Source: Naegleria gruberi
Taxonomy: Eukaryota
Length of the DNA stretch: 64,000 nucleotides
NCBI GenBank assembly: GCA_000004985.1
Contig: GG738852.1
Strand: one strand, 5' to 3'
The position numbers and the translations under genes are program-made. The notes under the pieces were generated by a model. It ran no database searches and had not been told where the DNA came from. It saw only the letters and a list, made by a program, of their open reading frames with translations. Shown here piece after piece: positions 8,171 to 45,654 of this stretch. Positions within the stretch are counted from its first letter, which is position 1; the number at the start of each line of letters is the position of its first letter.

Positions 8171-9979
8171 ATGAAACGAATCAATAACAAGGTTATCTTT
8201 CTAATAGCTACTGTAATTGTAGCTTTGCTTGCATTAGGAGTTTCCGTCTCCTTGCAACAACAAGTATCTGCTCAAGCAGGTGCCCAAGCTAGTAGTAGTG
8301 GTGCTTCTGTTAATGCTGGAGGCCAAGCCAGTGCTGGAAATCAGAATAACACTCAAGGTGGTGGACAAGGGCAAGGACAAGGACAGCAACAAGGTGGCAC
8401 ACAAGGACAGAACAATACATCTACTCAAGAGTTGAACAAGTTTTTGAATCGTATTGATACTGATTTGAGAATGATTGGAAGCTTTATTGATAGATGTGCA
8501 GGTTTGCAGCAACAAGGCCCAGGTGGTCAACAAGGTGGTCAACCAGGTGGTCCTGGACAAGGACAATTTGGTCAACCAGGCGGACAAGGTGGAATGCCAC
8601 AACAACCTCAACCAATTCAAGACCAAGGACCTCCAACTCAACAACAACAACCTGAATCTATGTGGTATTCAATGTTGGGAATGATTGGCTTACAACAATC
8701 TCCTCAACCACAACTTTCTGCCCAACAACAATTCCCACAACCTTCTCCTCAACCACAGCAATCACCAGCTCAAGCTCAGCAATCACCACAACCTCAACAA
8801 TCACCGGTTCAAGCCCAACCATCTCCACAACCACAGCAATCACCAGCCCAACCTCAACAATCACCACAACCTCAACAATCACCAGTTCAAGCCCAACCTT
8901 CTCCACAACCTTCTACAGTTGGAGCTGGTGCTGGTAGTCAAGAAACTAGACAACAAATTGCTTGTGGAATTGTTACCAAGGCTGCCACTAACTTGTTGAA
9001 TAATACCATGAGTTTAGTTTCCACTGTTAGTAACAATACCCAAATCAGCTCATCACTCAAGCAAGCTGTTGCTCAATTGCTTATTAAGGCAAATTTATTG
9101 TCTTCCAATGCCAAGAATTCAAGTTGGACCAATTTCCTTACCTCATTTGATCAATATGCTGTTAGTTTCTCAGCCTTGCAACAATCTCTCTCCAGACGTC
9201 AACAACAAGGCGGCCAACAAGGAGGACAAGGACAACAAGGCGGCCAACAAGGTGGCCAACAACAAGGTGGTCAAGGACAGCAAGGTGGTCAATTCGGTCC
9301 TCCACAACAAGGTGGTCAACAAGGACAATTTGTGCCACCTCAACAACAAGGTGGTCAACAAGGTCAATTCGGTCAGGGACAACAACAAGGCGGTCAACAA
9401 GGCCAATTCCCTCCACAACAAGGTCAAGATCAACAACAATATTCCTATCCACAACAAGGTGGTCAACAAGGTCAACAATATCCACAACAGCCTTATCAAG
9501 GACAATATGGTCAAGGACAACAAGGAGGTCAACAACAATATCCACAACAGCCTTATCAAGGGCAACAACAATATGGTCAAGCAGGCCAATATGGTCAACA
9601 AGATCAATATGGTCAAGGTCAACAAGGTGGACAACAATATGGTCAACAGTATCCTTACCAAGGACAACAAGGAGGTCAACAACAATATGGCCAAGGTGGA
9701 CAACAATATGGTCAACAAGATCAATACGGTCAAGGACAAAGTCAATACGGTCAACAATATCCACAACAGCCTTATCAAGGTCAACAAGGACAAAGTCAAT
9801 ACGGTCAAGGACAACAAGGAGGTCAACAACAATATCAACCACAGTATCCAACACCTTTCTACCAAAATCCATACCAATACAGAAATCCATACTTTTACCA
9901 AAGCCCAAGTTATCAATACTATCAACCACCACAACAACAACAACAATATGAAGGCTATTATCCAGAATATTATTACTAA
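8171..9979 (+). CDS. Secreted Q/G/P/Y-rich low-complexity (prion-like) protein
   Basis: N-terminal signal/TM (VIFLIATVIVALLALGVSVS). Followed by degenerate repeats QQGGQQGQF, SPQPQQSPAQ and QYGQGQQGGQQQYPQQPYQGQ. Ends in a Y/P-rich tail. Confidence 0.55.
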   Translation: MKRINNKVIFLIATVIVALLALGVSVSLQQQVSAQAGAQASSSGASVNAGGQASAGNQNNTQGGGQGQGQGQQQGGTQGQNNTSTQELNKFLNRIDTDLRMIGSFIDRCAGLQQQGPGGQQGGQPGGPGQGQFGQPGGQGGMPQQPQPIQDQGPPTQQQQPESMWYSMLGMIGLQQSPQPQLSAQQQFPQPSPQPQQSPAQAQQSPQPQQSPVQAQPSPQPQQSPAQPQQSPQPQQSPVQAQPSPQPSTVGAGAGSQETRQQIACGIVTKAATNLLNNTMSLVSTVSNNTQISSSLKQAVAQLLIKANLLSSNAKNSSWTNFLTSFDQYAVSFSALQQSLSRRQQQGGQQGGQGQQGGQQGGQQQGGQGQQGGQFGPPQQGGQQGQFVPPQQQGGQQGQFGQGQQQGGQQGQFPPQQGQDQQQYSYPQQGGQQGQQYPQQPYQGQYGQGQQGGQQQYPQQPYQGQQQYGQAGQYGQQDQYGQGQQGGQQYGQQYPYQGQQGGQQQYGQGGQQYGQQDQYGQGQSQYGQQYPQQPYQGQQGQSQYGQGQQGGQQQYQPQYPTPFYQNPYQYRNPYFYQSPSYQYYQPPQQQQQYEGYYPEYYY

Positions 9980-10047: not shown

Positions 10048-12441
10048 TTACAAATGTCTAAGCTCGTTTGCTTTGATTCTATCATTAGGCTGACACCTTA
10101 ACATTAGGAGAATCATATCAATTGTGTAATTGTCGCATTTATGTCGCTTTGAACGTTTCAAATTCTTCTCTAGCAATTCATGAACACTTTCTTCCAAAGC
10201 AATCTGCACAGAACCATCCCTTACCAACATGGATGCAATTTGAGTTTTCTAATATAATGTCAAACGAAATGATTAAAAAAAAACACTTACAAAATCACCA
10301 GTCAATACTTGATAAAGAGTACAACCTAATGACCAAATATCTGTTGCTTGTGACAATTCTCCCTTTCCACACAATAACTCAGGAGCAAGGAAAAGTTCAG
10401 TTCCTCTCAATCCAGCTTTCGTATTCAATTGAGAATTGGTTTGTTTTGATTGTTGAATAGAGGACGAATTTGGTGAATGCTTGGTAGATTCTCCAAAATC
10501 ACCAATAATTACATGAACCCAATCATTCGCCAAATTGATTTCATCTAGGAATATATTAGTTGGCTTCAAATCATTATGAGTAATAAACTTGACTTCATGC
10601 AAATGGAAGAGAGCATCAGCCAACTGTTGAATTAGAGTTAACATGAGCTTTTTCGAGAAGACAAATTCAGGATGTTTCTCCACAAATGACTTTAAATCGC
10701 CATGTTTGTAATACTGCATTACAAAACAAACTGATTGCAGTAGTGGACTTGGGAAAACATCAAGAACTTGAATAATATGTGGATGTTTGCATTCAATCAT
10801 TCTCATACCTTCCTCTCTAACAGCAGCAACTCTCTGCTCATCAATGTAATGCTCAATCCTAATTGACTTGATGGCTACTTGTGTATTGCTCTTCTCATCG
10901 AGAGCCAAGTAGACATTAGCAAAAGAACCTCTACCAATTAACTTTTCAACCACGTAACGATCTTTAAGTCTGTGATCTGCCTGAAGAGTATAATCTTCAT
11001 CCTCATAACAATCATTATCTGTTCCATCTTCACAAATGGAATCCCTTCGAATGACATTATTCTCAAGTGCTTGAGACTTGTAACTCTCTATTATACTACT
11101 GGCAACATATTCTACTTCACTGGCTCTTCTTAGATGATCATTCTGATCGGTCATATATGGCATTGCATCCACATTTTTCAGATCTTCTCTCTTCTCTGGT
11201 ATGACCACTGTTGGTCGATTTGCAGTCTTGAAACTTGTCTTGATAACTGAAGTATTTTCCTGGAGTGGTGAGGTCATTTGGAGAGATCTCTGTAAAAAGC
11301 TTGATTTGAGTGAGGTAATTTTATCCTCAATGTGTGGACTCTTCTTATCGAAATTAGAGTGCATATTGAATGTACTTGTACTGGATTGAGCAAGTTGTTG
11401 TGGTGGCTTTGGATTTTCAATGTCTTCCTCAATGGAAATCAGAGTTGGATTGTTGCTCAATGTTTGTTGTTGTTCGCTGTGATCCATCATGACAACTGGT
11501 GCATAGGTATTGGAAGGCTCCTTATCCTTCTTTTGCTTCTTTCTAAAACATGACATGACGATCAACAATATGGCTATGATAAGAATGGAAGCCAGAATGA
11601 AAAGTCCAACACCAATCATTCCTGCAATGAGTGCTGATTGATCGACAGTACTTGCCTTGGAGTTTCTCAAAATTTGAACAGAGTATGTGCATGATTCACT
11701 CAGACAACCACTCATCAAGACGACCACATAAATTGTTGCCTGTGGATAGTTAGCATTCTCAATTGGGAGAGTAAAGTTAGATTCCTTCTGAGTAAAGATC
11801 AATCTTTTCTGATAATCATAATTGCCGTTTGGTGTTGCCTTCTTGTTAATACCCACAAACACATCGACATATTCGGTTTTATCAGAGGGAGGTCTTGCAA
11901 TTTGTAAGGTAAATGTATCAGTGGCAAAATTAATACTCGAATCGGAGAAACAATTTGGACAAAAGTAATAATCAGAAAGGAGAGCAGGTGTGGTATAATT
12001 ATTTCCAACTCCCAAACTCAAATACTTGTACAATTGTAAAATGTTGAATTTTGTAAACTCCAAGCTAGAAGCAAGAGGATTGTGAATGACGAGAGAATAA
12101 TCAGTATCATGCTTTGAGAAAGCATAATCTGATTTTGAATAATCTGTTGTACCTGTATCGATAAGGGAAATGATAGAAGTATCTCTTGTTCTATTGAATG
12201 TTGTCAAATTATTCGAAGGCATGTAGCCAATCAAGTATCCTGCAAGGTTGGTTTGAAATTCAAACTTCCAATTACCGTAACCAAAGGGAAATGAAAAATA
12301 ATTATTCGAAGAGAGGCCATAAATTGTGTTTTGTTGTTGAAAACTTGGGTTGACCAAAAGTAATAGACAACCAAGCAAAACAAGAGCCAACAGTGAAGAA
12401 TTGACGATTTGGTGGCGATGAGGATTGATTCTCTTGATCAT
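10048..12441 (-). CDS. Receptor-like Ser/Thr protein kinase (signal peptide, ectodomain, 1 TM, kinase); 2 exons
   Basis: join(12441..10291,10248..10048). ATG verified. Signal peptide plus ~300-aa ectodomain, TM IAGMIGVGLFILASILIIAILLIV, and kinase motifs GRGSFANVY, HNDLKPTNIFL, DFG, APE. Exon 1 ends GAT TTT|GTAAGT. A 42-nt intron runs to ttag. Exon 2 (KTQIAS MLVRDG...DRIKANELRHL) is in frame. An alternative 93-nt acceptor (tgcag) is not excluded. Confidence 0.7.
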
Positions 12442-28925: not shown

Positions 28926-31900
28926 TTATTGGTTATGTGGTGTTTGTTTCTCCAAATGGTCAAGAATGGCTTTGGCTGATGGTCTTGATTGATAATCTTT
29001 GGCCAACATGGAAATTGTTAAATCAATCAAGTCTTGAGAGTATTTTCCAGCGTTTGTTAATTTTTCTTTTAGGAATTCTTTAACAGTTTCTGTTTCTTTC
29101 ATCATGTAGAGTTGACTGATTGAGGTATCTGTATCTTTACTCATAATTTGGTATATAGTCACACCTAAACTGTATATATCAGTTGTTGAATTGTATTTTC
29201 CACCGACTGACATTTCAGGAGACATGAAAAGAGGTGTACCACAGTAAGAAACATTTACAGATCCTTGATTTTGACGAGCTAAACCAAAGTCAGCAACAAT
29301 GATGTGGACATCATTTTCATCGATTGATTTGATAAAAATGTTATTTGGTTTGATATCTCTGTGAATTAATGACATGCTTGAGTGAATGTAATCCAAAGCT
29401 TGACATGATTGATCCAAAATCTTTCTAACTATTATTTCTGAACAGTATCCCTCACACTTGATAAGATTGGTTAAATCTCCCTTTTCATAATAATCCATAT
29501 CAATACACAATAATTGATCATTGTCAACAAAGAATTCATTGACTTTGAGAATGTAAGGGTGATTGATATTCATCAATTGAGCCCCTTCTTTCATAATTGA
29601 ATTCAAATCTTCAAAGGATGTGAATTTCATAACTTTGAGCGCCTTTTCATGGTTGTTTCTACTGTCTGTTGCTCTAAAAACTGATCCAAATCCGCCTTGA
29701 CCAATCTTTGACATGTTTTTATATCTTTGTGAAATTGGATCAGACGAGGTGGATGTATTTGAACCTGCAGAATTGTTGTGGAGTGGAGCAAATGACATAC
29801 TGTTGTTTGATGGGAAATCCAAGGAAGCTGATGTTTGCAATTCAATATAAAAACTATTGTTAGGGAAGTTGGCAGTGTTTTGAGAACTTTGTAACTGTTC
29901 TTTTTGGTGTAATCTTTGTGATTCTTGATCTAATTGTTCCTTCTTTCTCTTTGCCTTGATTCTCAATAAGACAACTATTATTACAATCACAACAATAATA
30001 ATTATCAATAGGAGAATGCCTAGAGAGAGGCCAACACCTAGTCCTATACCAAGAGATTGATCGTCTGTTGTGATTCTCTTTGATACTGTTGGTACTGTCG
30101 GTGTTGATGAAGATGTAGCTTGGCTATCAATTACACCAAAAGAAGTAAGGTGAGTCGTATAACAGTTAATATTGAAATATAAAGTATTAGACTCATTCTT
30201 GGTTAAAACAAAGTTAGTAGTTAATCCATCATAGGCCCACTTATTATTGGTTGTATCATAATATGTACAGGTAATGTTACTAGTAGAATTGGCCTTATAC
30301 ACCAAGTTATTGAAATTGATTACAATCTTATTGTTAAGCTTGTTAACTTTAACTAAAGCACCACTCAATTGAACAGAAATATCAATCAGAGGACTAATCA
30401 GGTCAGAAGATACGTATGAAGAGTAGCTAATATCATAAGAAAGAGTATTGTCGAAACCAAGAGCAGATAATTGACTTGAAAAATCAGATGGGAATACTAC
30501 ATTGGTTCCAATCATGGAAACAGCCTTTCCATCCAATTGGTTTAGCAACAATCCTGTTTGCATGTTTGTTTCTCCTTGAGGCAAATCTGTGTGAATAATA
30601 GAGTTGCCAGTAGTATTAGAACTTTGAGAAATTAACAACTTATTCAAGTTGGCCATATTATTGACGAATGGAGCAGGGGAAGAAACGGTGCTCATAATAT
30701 TGAACAAATCTACAATCTCATTGTAATGTTCATTGTCAATAATGAAAGGAAGAACTGAAGGGGAGTAAATATTTGAGGATGCACTAATACTCGAAAAGAT
30801 GTAAGTCATCCAAGATGAAAGACTTGAACTTTGAGTGGAAACAGTGCTTGGTGATAGCGTATTCAATAATACATAGATTGTTCTCAAGGGTGGAACGACC
30901 AAGGCAATAATCTTCTCATCGACGTTATAACCTGTGTTCTTCATTTGATACAGAACTGAACTCATATCAACCAATAATACTACTATTTGATTGGAGGTTG
31001 TTGAATCAAGTAAAGAAGGCAATAGGGCTATTGGAGTGTCTTGAATAAATAAGGACAACAAGGATGAGATATAATTTGCTGTATAAATAGAAATTTGCTT
31101 TTGAGATTTCAACAGTTGATATTGAGTATTGAGATAGTTATATCTGGAAGTGAATGAATTATCAGCAGCAAGACCAGAGGGCAATTTTACAACAATGTTG
31201 TACTTAGCAATTGCTAAAGAACCACTTGTTGTTACAAGCTTGACAATTACATTTAAATTTCCACCATTAACAAATGGAAGTGGTGTTACAGTTACTGATT
31301 TTGGAGTGTTTGAAAGAATTCCAACTCTTGAAGTACCATTATTAACTTGCATAATGAAACCAGATATCTTCTCCTTATTATTCACACACGAAATGACAAA
31401 TGAAGTTTCATAGGCAACATTTGAATTCAAAGGATCATATAATTGGCAACTGAATCTTGGCATCAAATCAACAGTTGTGATCACATTTGCAGATGATTGA
31501 CCTTGCCCATTTGTTACCTTCAATTGAATCTTGTAGTTCTCTCCCTGAATCAATCTAGAACTATCTATCAACAAGTTACTTTGAATGTTGGTTGAAAATG
31601 CAGTATTCCTTGCCGATTGTTGTATAACAGCTGAAACACTATTCTCACCATTGAAAAGTTTGATTGTTCCTTGAATCAATTCCCATTTCAATTCAGAAAT
31701 AGTTGATGCAGAGGTTATAGTGGCCTGAATTAACAAACTCTTTCCGTAAGGATAAACGTCTGGAATGGTATTTAGTTTAATGGCGGGAACATTCTGAGGT
31801 ACATTTACAACACTGATTGTTCCGCTCAGAGTCTGACTAGCTATACCAGAAACCGAAGCAGTTAAACTGATAGTGTAATCTCCTACAGGTAAATTACCAG

Positions 31901-32981
31901 CACCAATTGTCAATGTGTTTGTTGTTCCACTGCAAATGCTTGCAGAAATTTGCTGCTTGGTCTGCTTATCAAAACATGACCAGGAGTATTGAAGTGGAGT
32001 AGTAGAAGGTAAATTATTTAAATATGGATCAAAAACAAAAGTTCCAATTACAATACTGCTTGAAATTGAATAAGTTCTCTCAATATTTGTAAGAAGCAAA
32101 CCGAGTTGATCAAATACAGAGTAAGAAACAGGTACTTTTAAGGAGTATTGAGATGCTTCCACAATGCTAGTGGTGAGGGATCCAGTATATTGGGAGGCAA
32201 AATTATTGGTAAATCTGAATATCTGCTTGCCATAGAGTTGTGTTGACGTGTATGCTAAACTTCCTTCAAATACATTTTGTAAAGTTGTGCCTTGTGTTGG
32301 TACATTAAATTCAATGACACATGTTTGACCAGCACATGTATAACCTCCTGATTGTAAACCAGATACTAGCTCAAAGTTTTGATGAGTTGATACTGTATCA
32401 ATGGAATATTTCTGAGAGGTAGTATAGGTGTTATATGAATTAGAACTGGTTAATGAGACGTTGAGTACCTTTGAATTTCCTTCCATGGAGGAAATAGAAT
32501 TTAGGTAATTGGTTGGAATGATGACAACAGGATTGTTTGTGTTATTTAGAAATAGAGACTGAATTTGTGAAGGACAATTATTGCAATTCCAAACTTGTGA
32601 AATGGACTTGAAACCATAGAATAGATTACTAGTACTTGATCTTACTATGAGTGGCTGATTGAGTGTTAGTGGTGACAGGACACTATTAAGGGAACTTCCA
32701 GATGCTGTCGATAGAATAGAAATTGCACCCATTGCATTCACTTGTAACACCACATTACTTGGTATTAGATTCAATGTTGTTCCGTGCGTTATAGAATGAT
32801 TGAAACCAAGATAAATTCTCAAGCCTTGAGAAGTGAAATCACAACTAACCATGGAAGAATCTCCAAAGGATAAAATATCATTTTGTGAGAAGAAATCTTG
32901 ACAATATTTGGTACTAGATGGTATGTATGCCAGTATTGGAGGATGGTATGGCCAGAATTGTGAGATCACAAGATGTTTCAA
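28926..32981 (-). CDS. Giant receptor-type protein: large ectodomain with GPS/GAIN autoproteolysis motif, single TM, C-terminal Ser/Thr kinase (5' end unresolved)
   Basis: Continuous 1351-codon ORF. GPS motif CTYYDTTNNKWAYDG...NINCYTTHLTSFGVI at ~30290..30135. TM LGIGLGVGLSLGILLLIIIIVVIVIIVVLL at ~30044..29958. Complete kinase domain (GQGGFGSVF, HRDIKPNNIF, DFG, SPE) at ~29714..28929. No signal peptide or ATG lies near the 5' end, and the first Met is ~residue 44. The true 5' exons may be the NHL/EGF gene upstream. Confidence 0.7.
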   Translation of the reverse strand: MKHLVISQFWPYHPPILAYIPSSTKYCQDFFSQNDILSFGDSSMVSCDFTSQGLRIYLGFNHSITHGTTLNLIPSNVVLQVNAMGAISILSTASGSSLNSVLSPLTLNQPLIVRSSTSNLFYGFKSISQVWNCNNCPSQIQSLFLNNTNNPVVIIPTNYLNSISSMEGNSKVLNVSLTSSNSYNTYTTSQKYSIDTVSTHQNFELVSGLQSGGYTCAGQTCVIEFNVPTQGTTLQNVFEGSLAYTSTQLYGKQIFRFTNNFASQYTGSLTTSIVEASQYSLKVPVSYSVFDQLGLLLTNIERTYSISSSIVIGTFVFDPYLNNLPSTTPLQYSWSCFDKQTKQQISASICSGTTNTLTIGAGNLPVGDYTISLTASVSGIASQTLSGTISVVNVPQNVPAIKLNTIPDVYPYGKSLLIQATITSASTISELKWELIQGTIKLFNGENSVSAVIQQSARNTAFSTNIQSNLLIDSSRLIQGENYKIQLKVTNGQGQSSANVITTVDLMPRFSCQLYDPLNSNVAYETSFVISCVNNKEKISGFIMQVNNGTSRVGILSNTPKSVTVTPLPFVNGGNLNVIVKLVTTSGSLAIAKYNIVVKLPSGLAADNSFTSRYNYLNTQYQLLKSQKQISIYTANYISSLLSLFIQDTPIALLPSLLDSTTSNQIVVLLVDMSSVLYQMKNTGYNVDEKIIALVVPPLRTIYVLLNTLSPSTVSTQSSSLSSWMTYIFSSISASSNIYSPSVLPFIIDNEHYNEIVDLFNIMSTVSSPAPFVNNMANLNKLLISQSSNTTGNSIIHTDLPQGETNMQTGLLLNQLDGKAVSMIGTNVVFPSDFSSQLSALGFDNTLSYDISYSSYVSSDLISPLIDISVQLSGALVKVNKLNNKIVINFNNLVYKANSTSNITCTYYDTTNNKWAYDGLTTNFVLTKNESNTLYFNINCYTTHLTSFGVIDSQATSSSTPTVPTVSKRITTDDQSLGIGLGVGLSLGILLLIIIIVVIVIIVVLLRIKAKRKKEQLDQESQRLHQKEQLQSSQNTANFPNNSFYIELQTSASLDFPSNNSMSFAPLHNNSAGSNTSTSSDPISQRYKNMSKIGQGGFGSVFRATDSRNNHEKALKVMKFTSFEDLNSIMKEGAQLMNINHPYILKVNEFFVDNDQLLCIDMDYYEKGDLTNLIKCEGYCSEIIVRKILDQSCQALDYIHSSMSLIHRDIKPNNIFIKSIDENDVHIIVADFGLARQNQGSVNVSYCGTPLFMSPEMSVGGKYNSTTDIYSLGVTIYQIMSKDTDTSISQLYMMKETETVKEFLKEKLTNAGKYSQDLIDLTISMLAKDYQSRPSAKAILDHLEKQTPHNQ

Positions 32982-33225
32982 TTATTCCAGTAATGAATCT
33001 GCTGTTTGTTCAGGAAGGGGAAAGTGTTCGAATTATAATTTATGTTCCTGCAATACAGGATATACTGGTCCAAATTGCGATATTGCTATTTGTTATGGAA
33101 AATTGCAAAATGACACCACCGTTTGTTCCTCTTTTGGTGATTGTATTTCCTATAACAACTGCCAATGCAAACTTGGATATAGAGGAAACCAATGTCAATT
33201 TCTGCAAATGGCAGATATCAGGTGA
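32934..33225 (+). other. Inverted EGF-repeat coding segment (plus strand) at junction of NHL/EGF gene and GPS-kinase ORF
   Basis: The plus-strand frame encodes GGWYGQNCEITRC..CSGRGKCSNYNLCSCNTGYTGPNCDIAICYGKLQNDTTVCSSFGDCISYNNCQCKLGYRGNQCQF. These are 2.5 tenascin-type EGF repeats, paralogous to those encoded on the minus strand at 33230–33800. It is bounded by ccag| (32933) and CAG|GTGAGA (33225/6), with an in-frame TGA at 33223–33225. Confidence 0.4.
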
Positions 33226-36200
33226 GATACATAACCCATTTGAGCTACAAATATTACTGTTGTTTGAGGCTACATCATTACAGATAGTATATTGGCAATT
33301 ACTTCCAACATATCCTAAATTACATGAACATAAATTTGGACCTACACAAGTTCCATTACCACAACCGAGCCCGAATAATGCATTTCCCACTGTGTTTTTA
33401 ACACCTGCACACAAATATGATTGACACTCTGAGTCAAAATATCCTGCATTACAAGTACAATTATTAGAACTTAAACAGGCTCCTTTTCCAGAGCAAACGT
33501 TGGAAGATGCTGATGATTTTCCAAAGCATGCTGTAATTTGACATTCAGTTCCAGTATACCCATTCGAGCATGAGCATGTGTTGGGGAGAGAGCAGTTTCC
33601 CCTACCTGAACACACATTTGAATCATTAGAATATTTACCATAGCAGATGGCAAGTTGACAATTAAGCCCAGAAAATCCATTGAAACAGGTACAATTATTT
33701 GGAGAGTTACACAATCCATGGCCACTGCAAGTGGTAAGCTCATTAGAAACTCCAAAACAGGAGGCAATACATTGAGTGAAATTCCCATTAAGCCCATAAC
33801 CACTCGGACAGTAAGGAGCCAATCTTCTTATTCTGTTGTTCCCTTTATCGCTGATTAGTATTTCTCCACTATTGGCAATAAAAGTTGTTTGATATAAATA
33901 GTTGAATAAGGCACTTGTAGAGTTGCCTATGTCACCATATAATCCATTAATTGAATCATCTCCTCCAACAGCATTAATATTTCCATCAGGACCAATAACC
34001 CGAATCGAATGTTCATTAGTATAGTAAATAAAATCTCCATTCTTAGAAACAGCTACACTAGTCGTGTGCATACAGGCACCAATAGCTGGAACTCCAATAG
34101 CAAATTCATCACAGGAGCTAGTTGACCCACCAACAGTACTAATAATTCCAGTGTCTGCTGAAACTTTTCTTATTCTAAAATTTTCAGATATAAAAATATC
34201 ACCCAAACTACTAATTGCCAATGAGGAAGTGTATTGTAATTGAGCAGATGTGGCCAGAACATTGTTTCCATAAGTTCCACTTACTCCAGTTCCTGCAACC
34301 GGGTACACAGTTCCGCTCAGTGTTATTTTGTAAAGTCTTGGATTGGCAGATGTAAGAACAAGAATTTCACCAGTTATTGGTGATAGAGCAATACATTGAA
34401 CATCCAATGGAGCATTGATTGCTAGTGTTCCATCAGGGACAATGTTTTTGTCTCCATTTCCAGCTGTTGTTAAATGTGAGTTCACCAAAGCAAACAATTC
34501 CACTTACCAATTGTAGTTATTATTCCATTCGTTGAAACCTTGCGAACTCGGGAATTCATAGAATCTGCAATATAGACCTCACCTGAGCCACTGACTGCCA
34601 CACAACGAGGAGAGTTTAATTGGGCATTAATTGCCAAACCCCCATCTCCACTAAATCCACTTGTGCCATTGCCCGCAAATGTTACTATAGTATTATTAGG
34701 ATATAAAATTCGTATTCTGTCATTGAAGGTGTCTGATAACATTATTAAGCTTGATAATTTTTACAATTTAAAACTTACCAGCAATATATATTTCCCCAGT
34801 ATTAGCAGCTACTGCATGTTGTGGTTGTGCTAATTGAGCATTTATTCCCAATCCACGATCTCCAGAAAATGAGCCACCATGACCTGCAATAGTTGTAATA
34901 ATTCCTGAGCTATAAGAAACAAGTCTCACTCTGTTATTGTATTGATCTATTTAAGAATACTGTGTTAATTAAAGAGTAACAAAAGAATACGTACCTACAA
35001 TATATAAATCTCCAGAGGTATAATTGGCTGTGAGGGAAAATGGTTTAATTTGTACATTCTTTGCTAGCCCACCATTTCCAAGATCACCAATTACTGGAGA
35101 AACAGGACATATTCCATTTCCTGTTATAGTTGAAATAATTCCATTCGAATCTATTTTCCTTACAACACATTCACCATCAGAAGAAAAGAAAATATCACCC
35201 TTAGAAGTGGTGGTAATTGAAAATGGATATGATATCAATGCATTGATGGCCAACCCTCCATCTCCTGAGTTCATTATTAATTTTCTAATATTAAAAACGA
35301 AACAAACCTGAATAGCCAGCAGTGCCTGATCCTGCTATTGTAATAATTGTAGAATTGGATTTAAAAATTCTTCTAATTCTATGAGTTTCATAGTCAGCAA
35401 TAATAAAGTCACCATTTGATGCTATAGCAAAGGAGCGAAAACGACTAAGATAACTTGAAGTTGCAATAACGTTATCTGAATTGTATCCACAGAATCCATA
35501 AACTCCAGCTTTACAAAATTAATTCATTGTCCTTAATAACAATACTTACCAATGGTTGAAATAATTCCATTAGCGCCTATTTTTCTAAGTAAACAATTAA
35601 AAGAATCAGCAAAGTAAACAGTTCCATCATTTGCAACATTAATACCAAAAGGAAATCTCAAGTTGGAATTAATTGCCAATTGACCATCTTTTTGTTTTAA
35701 AATCAAAAAGAAAACTCAATACTTACCAGCACTGTACCCTTCGGTTCCATAAACCCCAGCAACAGTAACAATAGTTCCATTAGTGAATATCTTTCTAATT
35801 CTATGTTTTTCAGCTTCTGTGAGATACAAATCCCCATTAGCACTGAATGATATTCCCATCGGATTCATTAACATGGCATTAATAGCCAATGCTCCATCGC
35901 CATAATTTGAACTGGCAAAACCAGTTCCTGCATACGTTGTAACAATTCCATTCGCAATCTTTCGAATGAATGCACCATATGAAAGAGGATTGAAAAAAGA
36001 TCCGAATAAAGTATTTTCAGCAATGTACACATGTTGAGTAATTGGATGTATAGCAACTGCACTTGGTGAGTAAAGAGAGACACGTAAAGGATCATATCCC
36101 TCTCCCTTTACATTCAATCCACCAGCAATGGTAGAAACATTATAGCTTGGATAGAATGGTGTTGTTACTCCTGCAACAGCATGTGGTTGGTTACAAACAA

Positions 36201-36249
36201 TTGAGAGTGCAACCACCACAGCAAAAAGAATCGATACCAAAGTGTGCAT
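33040..36249 (-). CDS. Secreted NHL-repeat (beta-propeller) protein with tenascin-type EGF repeat array; 7 exons
   Basis: join(36249..35727,35687..35550,35508..35308,35264..34995,34946..34779,34732..34508,34463..33040). Signal peptide MHTLVSILFAVVVALSIVC. About 12 NHL repeats (GDGG.A..A.L..P.G....NG..Y.AD..N.RIRK). Then ~7 EGF repeats (CSG.G.C.....C.C..GY.G..C). All six introns are phase 1 and 39/41/43/48/46/44 nt long, with GTAAGT/GTTTGT/GTACGT donors. EGF periodicity is lost at 33226 (..CSSNGLCIS|PDICHLQKLTL..), and the last 60 aa are non-EGF down to the TAA at 33040. Confidence 0.75.
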
Positions 36250-41355: not shown

Positions 41356-44300
41356 TTACTTCTTAATGGTCACTTCACTGGCTGCACATGGAGAGAATTT
41401 AATGTAAACTTCACCCATGGCTGGAGTGGCAAGAGCAGAATCTTTCTTACTGCCAATTAATTTACCTTCCTTGGCTTTCCAATATTCAGCTTCTCTGAGG
41501 ATAAATCTTCTCTCACGTCCAATATTGTGTAAACGAAGGAGGTCTCCAACTTTGACTCTGAATTCACCCATATATTGATCTCTTGTCTTTTGATAGTCCA
41601 TACATTTGACAATTAAATAATCTTCATAATCAAAGATGTGAATAGTATGTGGTTCATGCCAATCAGGATTGACAGTTCTATTGACAATCTTGGTTCTAAC
41701 CTTTTGTTTCTTAGAACCCTTTCTGGTATTCTTTTCATTCAATTTAACTCTGAGGTAAGGATCTGCTGAGCCATGGTCAACCGGTAATAAATTTCTACCT
41801 CTGGAAACTTCCATTTTGAGACCTTCAGGTTTTGGTGCAATATATTTTGGAATGAGATTTACAATATTCTTTTCACCACATCCAACAATCTTCCATCCAC
41901 CCTTGTATAATTCAATGACACACATTGTTACAATAATGTCATTATCACTTTCATCAGCACTATCGTAACCATCCTCATTGACTTCATACTTTTCTTCCTT
42001 CTTAGTATACTTGTCAAGGAAAACACTTCCTGCAGTTTGAACACGAATAATTTCTTGACCTGTTCTCATGCCAACAACACGGCAGTAAACTTGTGAATTT
42101 TCATTGAGGACACTTCTTGATTTGACTTCAATATTTGCAACAATGTATTTGACATTGGAGCTTTCAACAAGATCACGAACACGAACGTCGAATTGTTCTT
42201 CATCATCTTGAGTATAGATGGTTAAAAAGTTAATTGGACGATGCTTGAGTTTGGCATCCATATCACTATATCCATCAAAGACTTTACCAATATATCTTCC
42301 AAAGTGATCATAGAGTTCAACTTCTGCATTGAGAATATGCTTCTGACCACCATTACCAACTACACCGAAACCAAGAACCAAATCTCTCTTATCCTTGACA
42401 AAGTCCTTTGAAACTGAAGTTGTTTCCTTTGCTGGAACTCTGAAAATATCATTAGATGGTTCACTGATATCAAATTGGCACTTTTGCAAGATGGATCTCA
42501 AATATTTACGAGCTGGTGATTGGAATTCTATGATTTCATCCAAAACTTCAATGAACCATTCGTCTCTTTGACCTCCACGATAAGCAATGACAGCCAAATT
42601 GGCATGTTGATGACAATTGAATACTTCCAAAGCATCTGTTGAACCATCAACATTGTAAACATTTCTCATTTTGGCAATACACATGTCAACCTTTTCGTCA
42701 ACATTCCACAATCTGAATGCATTGATTTGCTTTTCAGGAATGAGTGAATAATCCAAACCTTCCTCTTCTTCATTTCCAGAAATATCCTTGAATTTCAACA
42801 AGAAGCACATAAAGTATGGAGCATGAGGTTCCTTGCTATAGTTCAAATCAACACGGTGGAATGAGGACAAACTTTGCAACATTTGATCTTGTCTTGGAAG
42901 TTCATGTTCTTCATCCTCATCTTCTTCTTTGAGAACAAATGAACCAGTCATTTGAATATCACTGTTAGAGTCATTCTTTTTTGAAAGGGCAAGTTTTCTC
43001 TTTCTCAAATCATTTTCTTCATTGACCATGATTGGCTTAGCTCCTGTTAAGAGTTTACCATATTGTGAGAATTCTAACACTTGGAGAGCATCTAAGTTCT
43101 TTACAGTTGAAAAATCGAATCCAACAGTTCTGACTTCTTGCTTTGAGATACGGAAACAACGTGGTTTTTCTTTCTTTTCTTCTGACTTTTCTTCCACAAC
43201 AATCAAATCCAAGTCATCACCAACAGAAACAACTTCTTCAACATTTTCCTTCTTTTCTTGAGGCTTTTCAGCATCACTGGCCTTGTCTTGTTCTGCTAAC
43301 AACTTTTCTGCCTCTCTTTCACGTTCTTCTTCCTCAATTTCTGCCTGTGTTGTCAATTCAATACAAGGAGGTAAATCAATTGTGGTAACATAGGATTGAA
43401 TTTGAGCTTTCAACTTTGGATCGATAAGTGGATGGACACCATATGAATATTCGCCAATATTGCTAATCTTCCATTTGGTAAGTCCAATAAATGATCCAGA
43501 AGATACCATCGAGTTGATTTGATTCTTCTTTGAGGTAAAGTTAATTCCTGAAGATTCATTTGGATTTCTCAAACAAGTCAACTTGCAAGCAATGAAACTT
43601 TGGTGAGCCTTATCAGCAGTGTTCAATTGATATCTGTACAAGTCACCAACTGATGGAGTGGAAATCTTAACAAATGGATCTTTGAGTTCTTGGAAGCCAG
43701 AATCTTGAGCATTGGAAGAAGCAGTCACAACAACCATGATGGAGTGGACAGATTTTGGAAGACGACTCAAATCAATTTCTGCACACAAATCATTTTCCTT
43801 TCCAGACTCGAAGAGATTGTCCTTGTAGAATACAGCTGCAGGAGTTGGTTTGATGGCATGTGAAGAGGTTGACAAGTTATTACTTGAAGCTGTGTTAGAT
43901 GTGGCATTTCTAGGAGAATTGTTTCCAACACTTGGCTTATCGTTAGCAATTGATGAGCTTGAATTTCCAGCAGTAGAAGCTGTATTGGTATGATTTTCAA
44001 TTCTAGCAAGTGAGAGCTTTGGTGTGTATTGATCAATGTGACCAAGACGAGTTCCATATTTACCAAAGAATAGTACTGTAGTTGTTAAATAATATCTAGA
44101 GTATGATCTTCCTGAAAGGGCTTGCCATCCAATGAAAATCTTGACACGATCCTCATTGAAAGTGTAGCTCTTTTGCATGGAAATTTGTGATGCAATGGAT
44201 GGCTTTTCACTTTCCTTCTTTTCATTTTCATCGTAAGGATTTACATCCTTCTTGGCATTGATTTCTTGAAGGAGAGCTTCATCTTTCAAGGTTGGAATGA

Positions 44301-45654
44301 ATGGTGGTTTTTCAGCACTCACTTGAACAGATGACAAATATTTGTGAACCTCTTCAACAATCAATTGATCGATCAAAATCGATCCAGTCAATTCAGAATA
44401 GACACGAACAATATATTCTTCATCATCATCATGATCATCATCTTTGAGTAAATTAGCAATGGCCATATTTTCCTTATTCAAATTCTTCTTTTCCTCCTGA
44501 CGAAGGTGAATAATATAAGTTAAACGATTCTTCATGGAAATGAAAATATTCTCTGGCAATACATCCTTACACATGGCATACATGAAAGCATCAATAAATC
44601 TCTCATTGTGTCCAATATCTACTTGTTTTGAGACAATTTGCCAATAATAACTTGAATTTACACTTGCAGATGTTTCATCTTCTTGGGTAGTTTCATCATT
44701 TTCTTGTTCTGCTGGTTTCAAGTGACTGGAATTTCCAGGACTTTGTGAAATTGATGAATTATCCATAGCTGATCCTTCATCATCGTCATCATCCTTATTG
44801 GTATTCTCTTTTTCCTTTCCAGGTACCACAGATGTTGAAATAACTTCAGCATCTCCTCCTCTCAATTGAATAATTGCAAAAACTTGACCACTGACATCTC
44901 TTTGATTATCAAGTTTTGAAGAAATGGCAAGTTTCAATTCTTGATCATTAACATATTGATACAAATTACAACTAGCAAATGACAGTTCCGATAAAACTGT
45001 TCCAGCATAACAAGAAGCAAGGAAAACAATACAACGAACTTCTTGATCAACTTGTGAAAGATCCAATTCAATATATTCATTGCTATCAGAAATAGCTTTT
45101 TCAAGAGGAATTGTGTCATCTTTCAATTGTTCCTTCCTATTGTTGTTTTGATTAATATAGTTCAATTAGTTTTGTTATTATTTTAGAATAATAATATTGT
45201 AATTTGTTATATGAACATGTTAATATCTAAATAAACATAAGAAGAATACATACATTCTATTAGAATCTAGATTTTTAAATCCATTTCTATCATCACCACT
45301 ATGTTTTAATCCCTTCACTTGATCCAAGTTATTGAAAAAACAAACATCATGAATACCACCATATTTGTTTAAAAGAATGGCAACTAAATCAACATCGTGT
45401 GTTAGTGTAGATTTTGATTTCCATTGTAAAGTTGCTATAAATCGTGTATTAGAAATATTGGATGTGGCTAATGATGGACTTGTTGATGATTCCGTATTTT
45501 GTTGTGGATTGATTGGTGGTAAATTAAAGACAAAATTATGACTGTTTTTAAAGGGAAAAGTTGAGAATGTTGTAGGATTTGTTGTGCTGTGGGTGATGGA
45601 AAGAGGTGAATTTGGAGGTGAGAGAGCAGCAGCAAGTTTGGTTTTATTTAACAT
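41356..45654 (-). CDS. Large multi-TerD-like-domain protein with C-terminal C2 domain; 2 exons
   Basis: join(45654..45254,45136..41356). Exon 1 has the TerD signature THDVDLVAILLNKYGGIHDVCFFNNLDQVKGLKHSGDDRNGFKNLD, then AT|GTATGT. A 117-nt intron ends in ..caacaatag, and G completes an ATG codon in frame. Further TerD-like modules (..VFAIIQLRGGDAEV.., ..HANLAVIAYRGGQRDEWFIEV.., ..YCRVVGMRTGQEIIRV..). C-terminal C2 domain (LLPVDHGSADPYLRVKL...NPDWHEPHTIHIF). Confidence 0.6.

Follow-up and report, generated by a model that had tools for sequence, protein, structure and literature searches.

We analysed a 64,000-nucleotide stretch of Naegleria gruberi DNA (NCBI GenBank assembly GCA_000004985.1, contig GG738852.1; hereafter the window) and focused on a large open reading frame (ORF) on its minus strand, at positions 28926..32981. 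The ORF is very likely the 3' two-thirds of an N. gruberi gene for a type I, single-pass receptor Ser/Thr kinase of about 2,370 amino acids (aa), in which a GAIN domain with its GPS motif is followed by one transmembrane (TM) helix and a cytoplasmic kinase. The complete product starts with a signal peptide, one or more NHL β-propellers, about eight EGF repeats, a spacer and a REJ-like β-sandwich array. It continues with the GAIN domain (a two-Cys GPS ending in HL↓T, where the arrow marks the predicted cleavage site), a Ser/Thr/Pro-rich stalk of about 23 aa, the TM helix, a juxtamembrane segment of about 80 aa and the Ser/Thr kinase. We regard this domain architecture and the homology assignments as very probable. 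The features encoded by the ORF are as follows.

28926..32981, minus strand: large terminal ORF carrying ectodomain, GAIN/GPS, TM helix and kinase; 1351 codons plus stop, no internal stop
31170..32033, minus strand: REJ-like region, aa 317-604, three tandem β-sandwich domains
30612..31124, minus strand: GAIN subdomain A, aa ~620-790, a helical bundle (residues 1-170 of the AlphaFold2 model, all helical)
30123..30584, minus strand: GAIN subdomain B, aa ~800-953, a β-sandwich that includes the GPS motif (family profile and AlphaFold2 model)
30123..30269, minus strand: GPS motif, aa 905-953, within GAIN subdomain B
30144..30152, minus strand: H944-L945-T946, predicted autoproteolysis site in the turn between the last two β-strands
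29967..30053, minus strand: single TM helix, aa ~977-1005, read directly from the sequence and followed by the basic stop-transfer segment RIKAKRKK
28956..29723, minus strand: Ser/Thr protein kinase domain, aa 1087-1342 (Pfam Pkinase PF00069, E=6.9e-52)

A first-pass annotation, made by a model from the letters alone, had described this element as a single 4-kb ORF with an S/T/N-rich ectodomain, a GPS motif, a TM helix about 35 aa downstream and a complete protein kinase domain. The single ORF stood and its strand had to be corrected to minus: in DNA of 35% GC the minus strand is open for 1351 uninterrupted codons, while the plus-strand translation of the same coordinates is riddled with stops. 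GPS, TM helix and kinase are continuous in this one reading frame. The ectodomain is indeed rich in Ser (14.9%), Thr (10%) and Asn (9.3%), and the TM helix was found close to where it had been placed: 31 residues separate T946 from its start at about aa 977, so that the GAIN domain lies directly N-terminal of the first TM helix. No Pfam hit was obtained on the window protein for 7tm, PLAT or PKD_channel domains; there is a single hydrophobic segment and then the kinase.

The kinase domain is complete, as had been claimed. Its motifs can be read in the sequence (GQGGFG, the ALKVMK lysine, the Ser/Thr signature HRDIKPNN, DFG and SPE) and, with all catalytic motifs intact, the domain looks active. 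Among solved kinases, STK24/MST3, CDPK1 and NEK1 come closest, each at about 1e-29. Judged by sequence, it is a generic Ser/Thr eukaryotic protein kinase, nearest to the STE20, CDPK and NEK groups, and not of the TK, TKL or Pelle type.

The GPS motif, on the other hand, is not the canonical one of the first-pass annotation (C-x-C...W...GC...C-x-C); that pattern is absent. The motif reads C905-TYYDTTNNK-W-AYDG-L...NIN-C940-YTT-HL↓TSFGVI. Two of the four GPS cysteines are present, the canonical first and third, with GL in place of the "GC" pair and Thr in place of the last Cys, and one of the two tryptophans, the first conserved Trp having become Tyr. The HL↓TSFGVI segment itself is present as annotated, with HLT at aa 944-946 (window 30152..30144). 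The usual GPS disulfides pair C1 with C3 and C2 with C4. Because C1 and C3 are kept while C2 and C4 are both replaced, the pattern points to a GPS with one disulfide.

An exhaustive phmmer search with the 990-aa ectodomain, in which 1.84 billion representative sequences were scanned, matched 35 proteins. Four of these, N. gruberi NAEGRDRAFT_70317, _70916 and _49308 and N. fowleri FDP41_013523, are similar and collinear over the whole ectodomain (query residues 1-981, E 4e-89 to 9e-124). Approximately 25 proteins match its final 150-230 residues, and most of them have in common the motif C-x-[YF]-[YFL]-[DN]-x5-W-x2-[DSNE]-G ... C-x-[TS]-x-H-L-[TS]-x-F-x-[VI]. The weakest matches include textbook four-Cys GPS proteins that pass the Pfam GPS model and carry Pfam REJ, namely P0145, P0148 (urchin Diadema) and P0155.

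Two alignments were made from these homologues: A1, with 25 sequences including two canonical four-Cys GPS proteins, and A3, with 18 two-Cys sequences only, the canonical members having been removed. In A1, columns C286, Y288, W296, G300, C321, H325, L326 and F329 show little or no variation, and Pfam GPS (PF01825) is matched at E<=0.01 by 19 of the 25 members (best E 5.8e-11). In A3, the H and L of the cleavage tripeptide are invariant, and every kinase-bearing family member retains H-L-T or H-L-S. The conservation of the HLT tripeptide that had been looked for in homologues was thus found. The Phe at +3 and the downstream β-strand are conserved as well. Once the homologues are considered, the resemblance to a GPS motif is, at the sequence level, far beyond chance.

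The profiles also lead to GAIN domains of known structure. Searched against 177,635 PDB sequences, the A1 profile retrieved solely adhesion G protein-coupled receptor (aGPCR) GAIN domains at E<0.5: ADGRG6 (1.7e-10), ADGRL3 (1.1e-8) and ADGRG1 (1.7e-7), and also ADGRG3, ADGRF1, ADGRE5, latrophilin-1 and BAI3. These alignments span about 110-130 residues and thus run far past the 40-aa motif into subdomain B. With the A3 profile, aGPCR GAIN domains were again the only PDB matches at E<0.01 (ADGRG1 4.9e-4, ADGRL3 7.3e-4; range to 7e-3).

The structure prediction that the first-pass annotation had proposed for a GAIN fold ahead of the HL↓T site gave a model with that layout. AlphaFold2, run on aa 620-985 with A1, returned a mean pLDDT (predicted local distance difference test) of 83.5, with a helical bundle at model residues 1-170 followed by a β-sandwich at 185-333. 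HLT occupies model residues 325-327, in a tight turn between strands E314-323 and E328-333, and TSFGVI forms the final strand. The model therefore has the features of a GAIN fold: subdomain A is helical, subdomain B is a β-sandwich, and the predicted cleavage site precedes the last strand. Subdomain A contains about 9-10 helices in the model and is conserved only in the kinase-bearing full-length paralogues. From the profiles and the model, we consider the juxtamembrane module to be a divergent, one-disulfide GAIN domain.

N-terminal to this domain, aa 317-604 match the Pfam-REJ-annotated stretch of four otherwise unrelated proteins (phmmer whole-library E 1.6e-6 to 9e-4). The motifs common to this alignment are LxYxWxC, LxxGxYxFxLTV and GxxYxFxL, and AlphaFold2 predicted three β-sandwich domains here with a pLDDT of 79.9. 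By sequence similarity, REJ would therefore be followed by GAIN in the ectodomain, a pairing that elsewhere is typical of polycystin-1, PKDREJ and suREJ.

The ORF alone has neither a signal peptide nor a plausible start codon. The earlier suggestion that its 5' portion lies upstream was borne out by a start codon at 36249, a predicted signal peptide and exons encoding NHL and EGF repeats, which together have the following arrangement.

36169..36249, minus strand: start codon at 36249 and predicted signal peptide MHTLVSILFAVVVALSIVCNQPHAVAG (hydrophobic N-terminus, read by eye)
33811..36168, minus strand: NHL-repeat (teneurin-type) β-propeller region, exons 1-7; Pfam TEN_NHL/NHL, about a dozen NHL repeats
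35726-35688, 35549-35509, 35307-35265, 34994-34947, 34778-34733 and 34507-34464, minus strand: six GT..AG introns
33211..33810, minus strand: EGF-like repeats (teneurin/EGF_2 type) ending ...CSSNGLCISPDIC; Pfam EGF_2 1.7e-15, 100% identical to EFC35246.1 aa 2-131
32941..33210, plus strand: 270-bp segment with about 2.5 further EGF repeats, inverted relative to the gene; EFC35246.1 aa 136-225 on the plus strand

Only a single splice combination keeps an open frame together with the NHL consensus. The introns are 39-48 nt long, begin with GTAAGT, GTTTGT or GTACGT, and fall between or within NHL repeat units; the large 3' exon contains none. On the minus strand the EGF exon ends ...CISPDIC at 33211 and is followed by nonsense and an in-frame stop at 33040. 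The frame breaks past 33211 because 32941..33210 encodes EGF repeats on the plus strand.

The intact order is seen in EFC35246.1 (the same protein as P0125), a partial N. gruberi protein of 384 aa that comes from another contig of this genome project, 1203 bp long. This protein holds all three pieces in one orientation, with the junction ...CISPDIC-QCFNGWYGQ...GNQCQFLQIDLDGPNAILSASYPPILAY... Its aa 2-131 correspond to 33600..33211 (minus), aa 136-225 to 32941..33210 (plus) and aa 238-377 to 32945..32526 (minus). The comparison was made at the protein level, at which the window pieces are 98-100% identical to it. Sixteen codons are lost at the junctions in the window: QCFN (aa 132-135) and DLDGPNAILSAS (aa 226-237). 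This 270-bp inversion with junctional deletions reflects either an error of assembly or, on one haplotype, a heterozygous null allele.

Without the inversion, the gene would encode a product of about 2,371 aa, similar in size to the paralogues (2,142-2,807 aa). The reference annotation models only P0001 here, a 290-aa "predicted protein" of N. gruberi (939-kb contig) that is 100% identical to the kinase end of the ORF and starts at M1062, downstream of the TM helix. The inversion explains this kinase-only annotation. About 2,000 aa of the product of 28926..36249 (minus) have no deposited model; what is deposited is P0001 and the partial EFC35246.1.

The GPS-TM-kinase arrangement is not confined to this locus. 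A search for orthologues within the lineage had been suggested, and the combination was found in one polypeptide in at least six other Naegleria/heterolobosean genes and in one Protostelium transcript.

N. gruberi NAEGRDRAFT_70317, _70916 and _49308: GPS-TM-kinase polypeptides
N. fowleri FDP41_013523 and FDP41_011216: GPS-TM-kinase polypeptides
Environmental protein P0004, 578 aa: EGF through GPS and TM to kinase
Protostelium nocturnum P0154 (EukProt EP01117_P012933), 527 aa: canonical four-Cys GPS (Pfam 3e-10), TM, TK/TKL-type kinase (2.5e-67)

The flanks of the window ORF and of the full-length paralogues carry the same Pfam set. Two further groups of Naegleria proteins have partial layouts. 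EGF-GAIN-TM proteins (P0127-P0142), some with NHL-like repeats (P0127, P0128), have short tails of about 40-60 cytoplasmic residues and a highly conserved motif after the cleavage site, HLTSFAVID-N-KK. NHL-EGF-TM-kinase proteins without GAIN also occur (P0002/P0163 and P0003). The family thus comprises three layouts, NHL-EGF-REJ-GAIN-TM-kinase, NHL-EGF-GAIN-TM with a short tail and NHL-EGF-TM-kinase, and its modules have clearly been shuffled inside a lineage-specific Naegleria expansion. It is a multigene family, so far from Naegleria (Heterolobosea). The Protostelium protein probably represents an independent domain shuffle or fusion in another supergroup, Amoebozoa. Together with the profile search and the HLT conservation, the finding that seven other genes or transcripts encode the combination in one polypeptide supports the central claim of the first-pass annotation, that a GPS/GAIN module sits just before a one-pass kinase.

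Several observations weigh against an intact receptor with a self-cleaving GAIN domain at this locus. The second GPS disulfide is missing in the window protein, and Tyr stands in place of the first conserved Trp. The profile searches that had been recommended gave a divided answer: the homologue profile led to aGPCR GAIN domains and the full ORF matched Pkinase, but against Pfam it gave no GPS, GAIN or REJ match at E<=0.1. The excised GPS piece covers positions 2-45 of the 45 in PF01825 and scores 16.8-20.6 bits (E 0.01 to 7e-4), below the Pfam gathering cut-off of 22.5 bits. Pfam REJ likewise gave no score on the window protein or on the four paralogues. A Foldseek search of the GAIN model against the PDB found no significant GAIN match; its top and only high-probability match was the ZU5-containing cytoplasmic domain of UNC5b (prob 0.97, E 0.017). 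The ZU5 fold has been proposed as a relative of GPS (PMC3482391), and a GAIN/ZU5/Nup98 autoproteolytic superfamily has also been proposed (PMC3482391; Liao 2014 as cited in PMC11697300). The UNC5b match to our model is in line with that proposal. The tethered-agonist mechanism of aGPCRs requires a seven-transmembrane (7TM) pocket, which this protein lacks, and genuine GAIN domains exist that stay folded and uncleaved, such as that of BAI3 (Araç 2012, PMC3321182). As a consequence, the HLT motif is no proof of cleavage. Finally, owing to the inversion, a stop codon separates the EGF exons from the large ORF, and the reference annotation models the kinase alone.

The departures from the GPS consensus, the sub-threshold Pfam score, the missing pocket and the BAI3 precedent would all suit the principal alternative, namely that the domain is a real GAIN that does not cleave and serves as a rigid juxtamembrane stalk or spacer, with the kinase regulated by ordinary ligand-induced dimerisation. 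We think this unlikely, since H (-2), L (-1) and T/S (+1) show almost no variation, or none, among about 25 homologues that are just 23-33% identical overall. Near-invariance in sequences so divergent indicates selection on the catalytic triad itself, and the conservation of Phe +3 and the next β-strand argues in the same direction.

Another possibility is that the gene is broken in the sequenced haplotype, the inversion having cut the upstream exons off, so that either no receptor or a cytosolic, kinase-only product is made. The inverted segment, the 16 lost codons, the stop at 33040 and the kinase-only model P0001 fit this explanation, as does the absence of any protein covering the window ectodomain from the protein collections searched. 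However, the 1351-codon ORF is fully open and, in BLAST pieces, 98.6-100% identical to the un-inverted EFC35246.1, with no sign of decay, and the intact order on the 1203-bp contig fits a mis-assembly or a heterozygous variant. In addition, splicing of a candidate long intron, with its donor near 33233 and its acceptor near 32929, might remove the inverted piece without loss of the frame. We therefore judge a broken gene to be improbable, at roughly one chance in four. A third explanation, that the ectodomain with its TM helix and the kinase belong to two adjacent genes or transcripts that are in frame by accident, draws on the start of the annotated gene at M1062, past the TM helix. It is very improbable: there are no stops across the 1351 codons, the same fusion has been annotated by independent pipelines in three N. 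gruberi paralogues and two N. fowleri genes, and it is one predicted protein (P0004) on an environmental contig. Moreover, the juxtamembrane segment FPS..S..F.PL is common to P0002, P0003, P0004, P0121 and the window protein. Lastly, a chance HLT tripeptide in the low-complexity sequence of an unrelated mucin-like stalk, an idea that the S/T/N-rich composition, the lack of a Pfam GPS/GAIN/REJ match for the full ORF and a single-sequence phmmer search of the GPS region against the PDB (weak, irrelevant matches only) might have encouraged, is effectively refuted by the homologues.

For the divergent GAIN domain of an intact receptor, a mechanism can be drawn by analogy with aGPCR and polycystin-1 (PC1) GAIN cleavage (Araç 2012, PMC3321182; PMC11697300). 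The domain would cleave itself between L945 and T946 in the endoplasmic reticulum. The large N-terminal fragment (NHL-EGF-REJ-GAIN) would remain non-covalently bound to the strand TSFGVI of a C-terminal fragment made up of stalk, TM helix and kinase. Ligand binding to the NHL/EGF/REJ part, or traction on it, for example by prey, substrate or neighbouring cells, might then loosen or remove the N-terminal fragment. This could shift the C-terminal fragment to another oligomeric state or conformation and so alter trans-phosphorylation by the kinase. As there is no 7TM pocket, classic tethered agonism is inapplicable and any effect would be steric or exerted through clustering. On this analogy, autoproteolysis at the L945-T946 bond seems slightly better than an even prospect. 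Coupling of cleavage or shedding to kinase output is a more tentative suggestion. We put forward with similar reserve the idea that Naegleria and, independently, at least one amoebozoan use a self-cleaving GAIN domain as the sensor of single-pass receptor kinases.

Among known systems, the window protein resembles polycystin-1, PKDREJ and sea-urchin REJ proteins in that a β-sandwich array, here REJ-like by sequence similarity, immediately precedes a GAIN domain whose GPS contains HL↓T and lies beside the first TM helix. Its helix-rich subdomain A (about 9-10 helices) is also PKD1-like; models of PKD1-type GAIN domains have up to eight helices there (PMC11697300). Cleavage of PC1 has been reported to require the REJ region (Qian 2002, as cited in PMC11697300). 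In contrast, PKD1-like proteins have 11 TM helices, PLAT and channel-like parts where the window protein has one TM helix and a Ser/Thr kinase, four GPS cysteines rather than two, and an N-terminus of leucine-rich repeats, C-lectin and PKD repeats rather than NHL and EGF repeats; Pfam REJ, moreover, does not score on the window protein. Compared to adhesion GPCRs, the window protein has no 7TM region, hence no tethered-agonist pocket, no HormR domain and one GPS disulfide fewer, and its output is a kinase, not a G protein.

The closest relatives are the Naegleria paralogues and orthologues, which have the same NHL (not in FDP41_011216), EGF, REJ-like, GAIN/GPS, TM and kinase parts and are 24-34% identical over the ectodomain of about 1000 aa. 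They are separate genes, whereas the window locus has no full-length model, and no functional description of them was present in any paper found. Protostelium P0154 likewise combines GPS, single TM and cytoplasmic kinase in one protein; it differs in its four-Cys GPS, its PK_Tyr_Ser-Thr (TK/TKL-like) kinase and its short ectodomain.

Other single-pass receptor kinases (animal receptor tyrosine kinases, TGF-β receptors, plant receptor-like kinases and Entamoeba transmembrane kinases) resemble the window protein in their type I topology and their extracellular adhesive or ligand-binding region, and the activation logic in common is likely a change of oligomeric state. To our knowledge, none of them contains a GAIN domain. 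A relationship to teneurins was considered, as the teneurin NHL and teneurin EGF Pfam models fit the N-terminal exons best, and rejected beyond domain-level similarity: the order is reversed in the window gene, where NHL precedes EGF, both a YD shell and a toxin domain are missing from it, and teneurins are type II membrane proteins while the window protein is type I.

The first-pass annotation had not recognised this as a described receptor class, and this judgement needs qualification. A 2025 GAIN-domain paper gives GAIN as known only from aGPCRs and PKD1-like proteins, and current reviews treat it as the hallmark of two receptor families. In the literature open to our search, outside of which most subscription journals lay, we found no description of a GPS/GAIN-kinase receptor or of Naegleria GAIN domains. 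The class is thus undescribed in the searchable literature, yet its paralogues are already in databases: FDP41_011216 was automatically named "GPS domain-containing protein" in UniProt, and paralogues of the same architecture are deposited as "predicted protein".

The surrounding DNA is gene-dense, eukaryotic and nuclear, also with 35% GC across the window. Neighboring genes encode MCM, myosin, a DEAD-box helicase and a Vps4-type AAA ATPase, and no tRNA genes were found in the 64 kb. A bacterial or viral origin was rejected in view of the GT..AG introns of about 40 nt, these eukaryotic housekeeping neighbors and the 100% N. gruberi match. Three other ORFs in the window deserve mention.

10273..12441, minus strand: a second, unrelated single-pass receptor-type kinase (Pkinase 7.7e-41), with a signal peptide, some 260 aa of ectodomain matching no Pfam model, a TM helix, an extended Q/S-rich juxtamembrane segment and Pkinase; the ORF stops after Pkinase profile position 195 of 263, probably at an intron
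8171..9979, plus strand: an ORF in which a signal peptide precedes low-complexity repeats extremely rich in Q/G/P/Y (QQGGQQGQ..., SPQPQQ...), coincident with a local GC bump (42%) and a strong AT skew; the long ORFs that overlap it, both in other frames and on the opposite strand, are what repetitive sequence would be expected to give
41356..45165, minus strand: a 1269-aa ORF with a TerD domain (3.7e-13) and a C-terminal C2 domain (1.1e-16), a pairing that looks unusual for a eukaryote

These results correct the annotation of the locus and flag a probable mis-assembly or structural variant. With REJ-GAIN placed on a one-pass Ser/Thr kinase in a conserved family, the module would have a broader range of known uses, and in the sister families a bare TM tail follows GAIN. 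With one TM helix and an enzymatic read-out, the receptor offers a simpler system in which the effects of GAIN cleavage or of N-terminal fragment loss could be seen apart from tethered agonism. If the proposed mechanism is true, a Ser/Thr kinase, and not a 7TM or channel core, would be switched when force or ligand releases the N-terminal fragment. GAIN autoproteolysis would then have a third signalling context, the module would function without a tethered-agonist pocket, and the REJ-GAIN cassette would have been a mobile unit early in eukaryote evolution. For Naegleria, whose surface signalling is poorly known, these proteins would add a receptor class, with at least two members in the pathogen N. 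fowleri.

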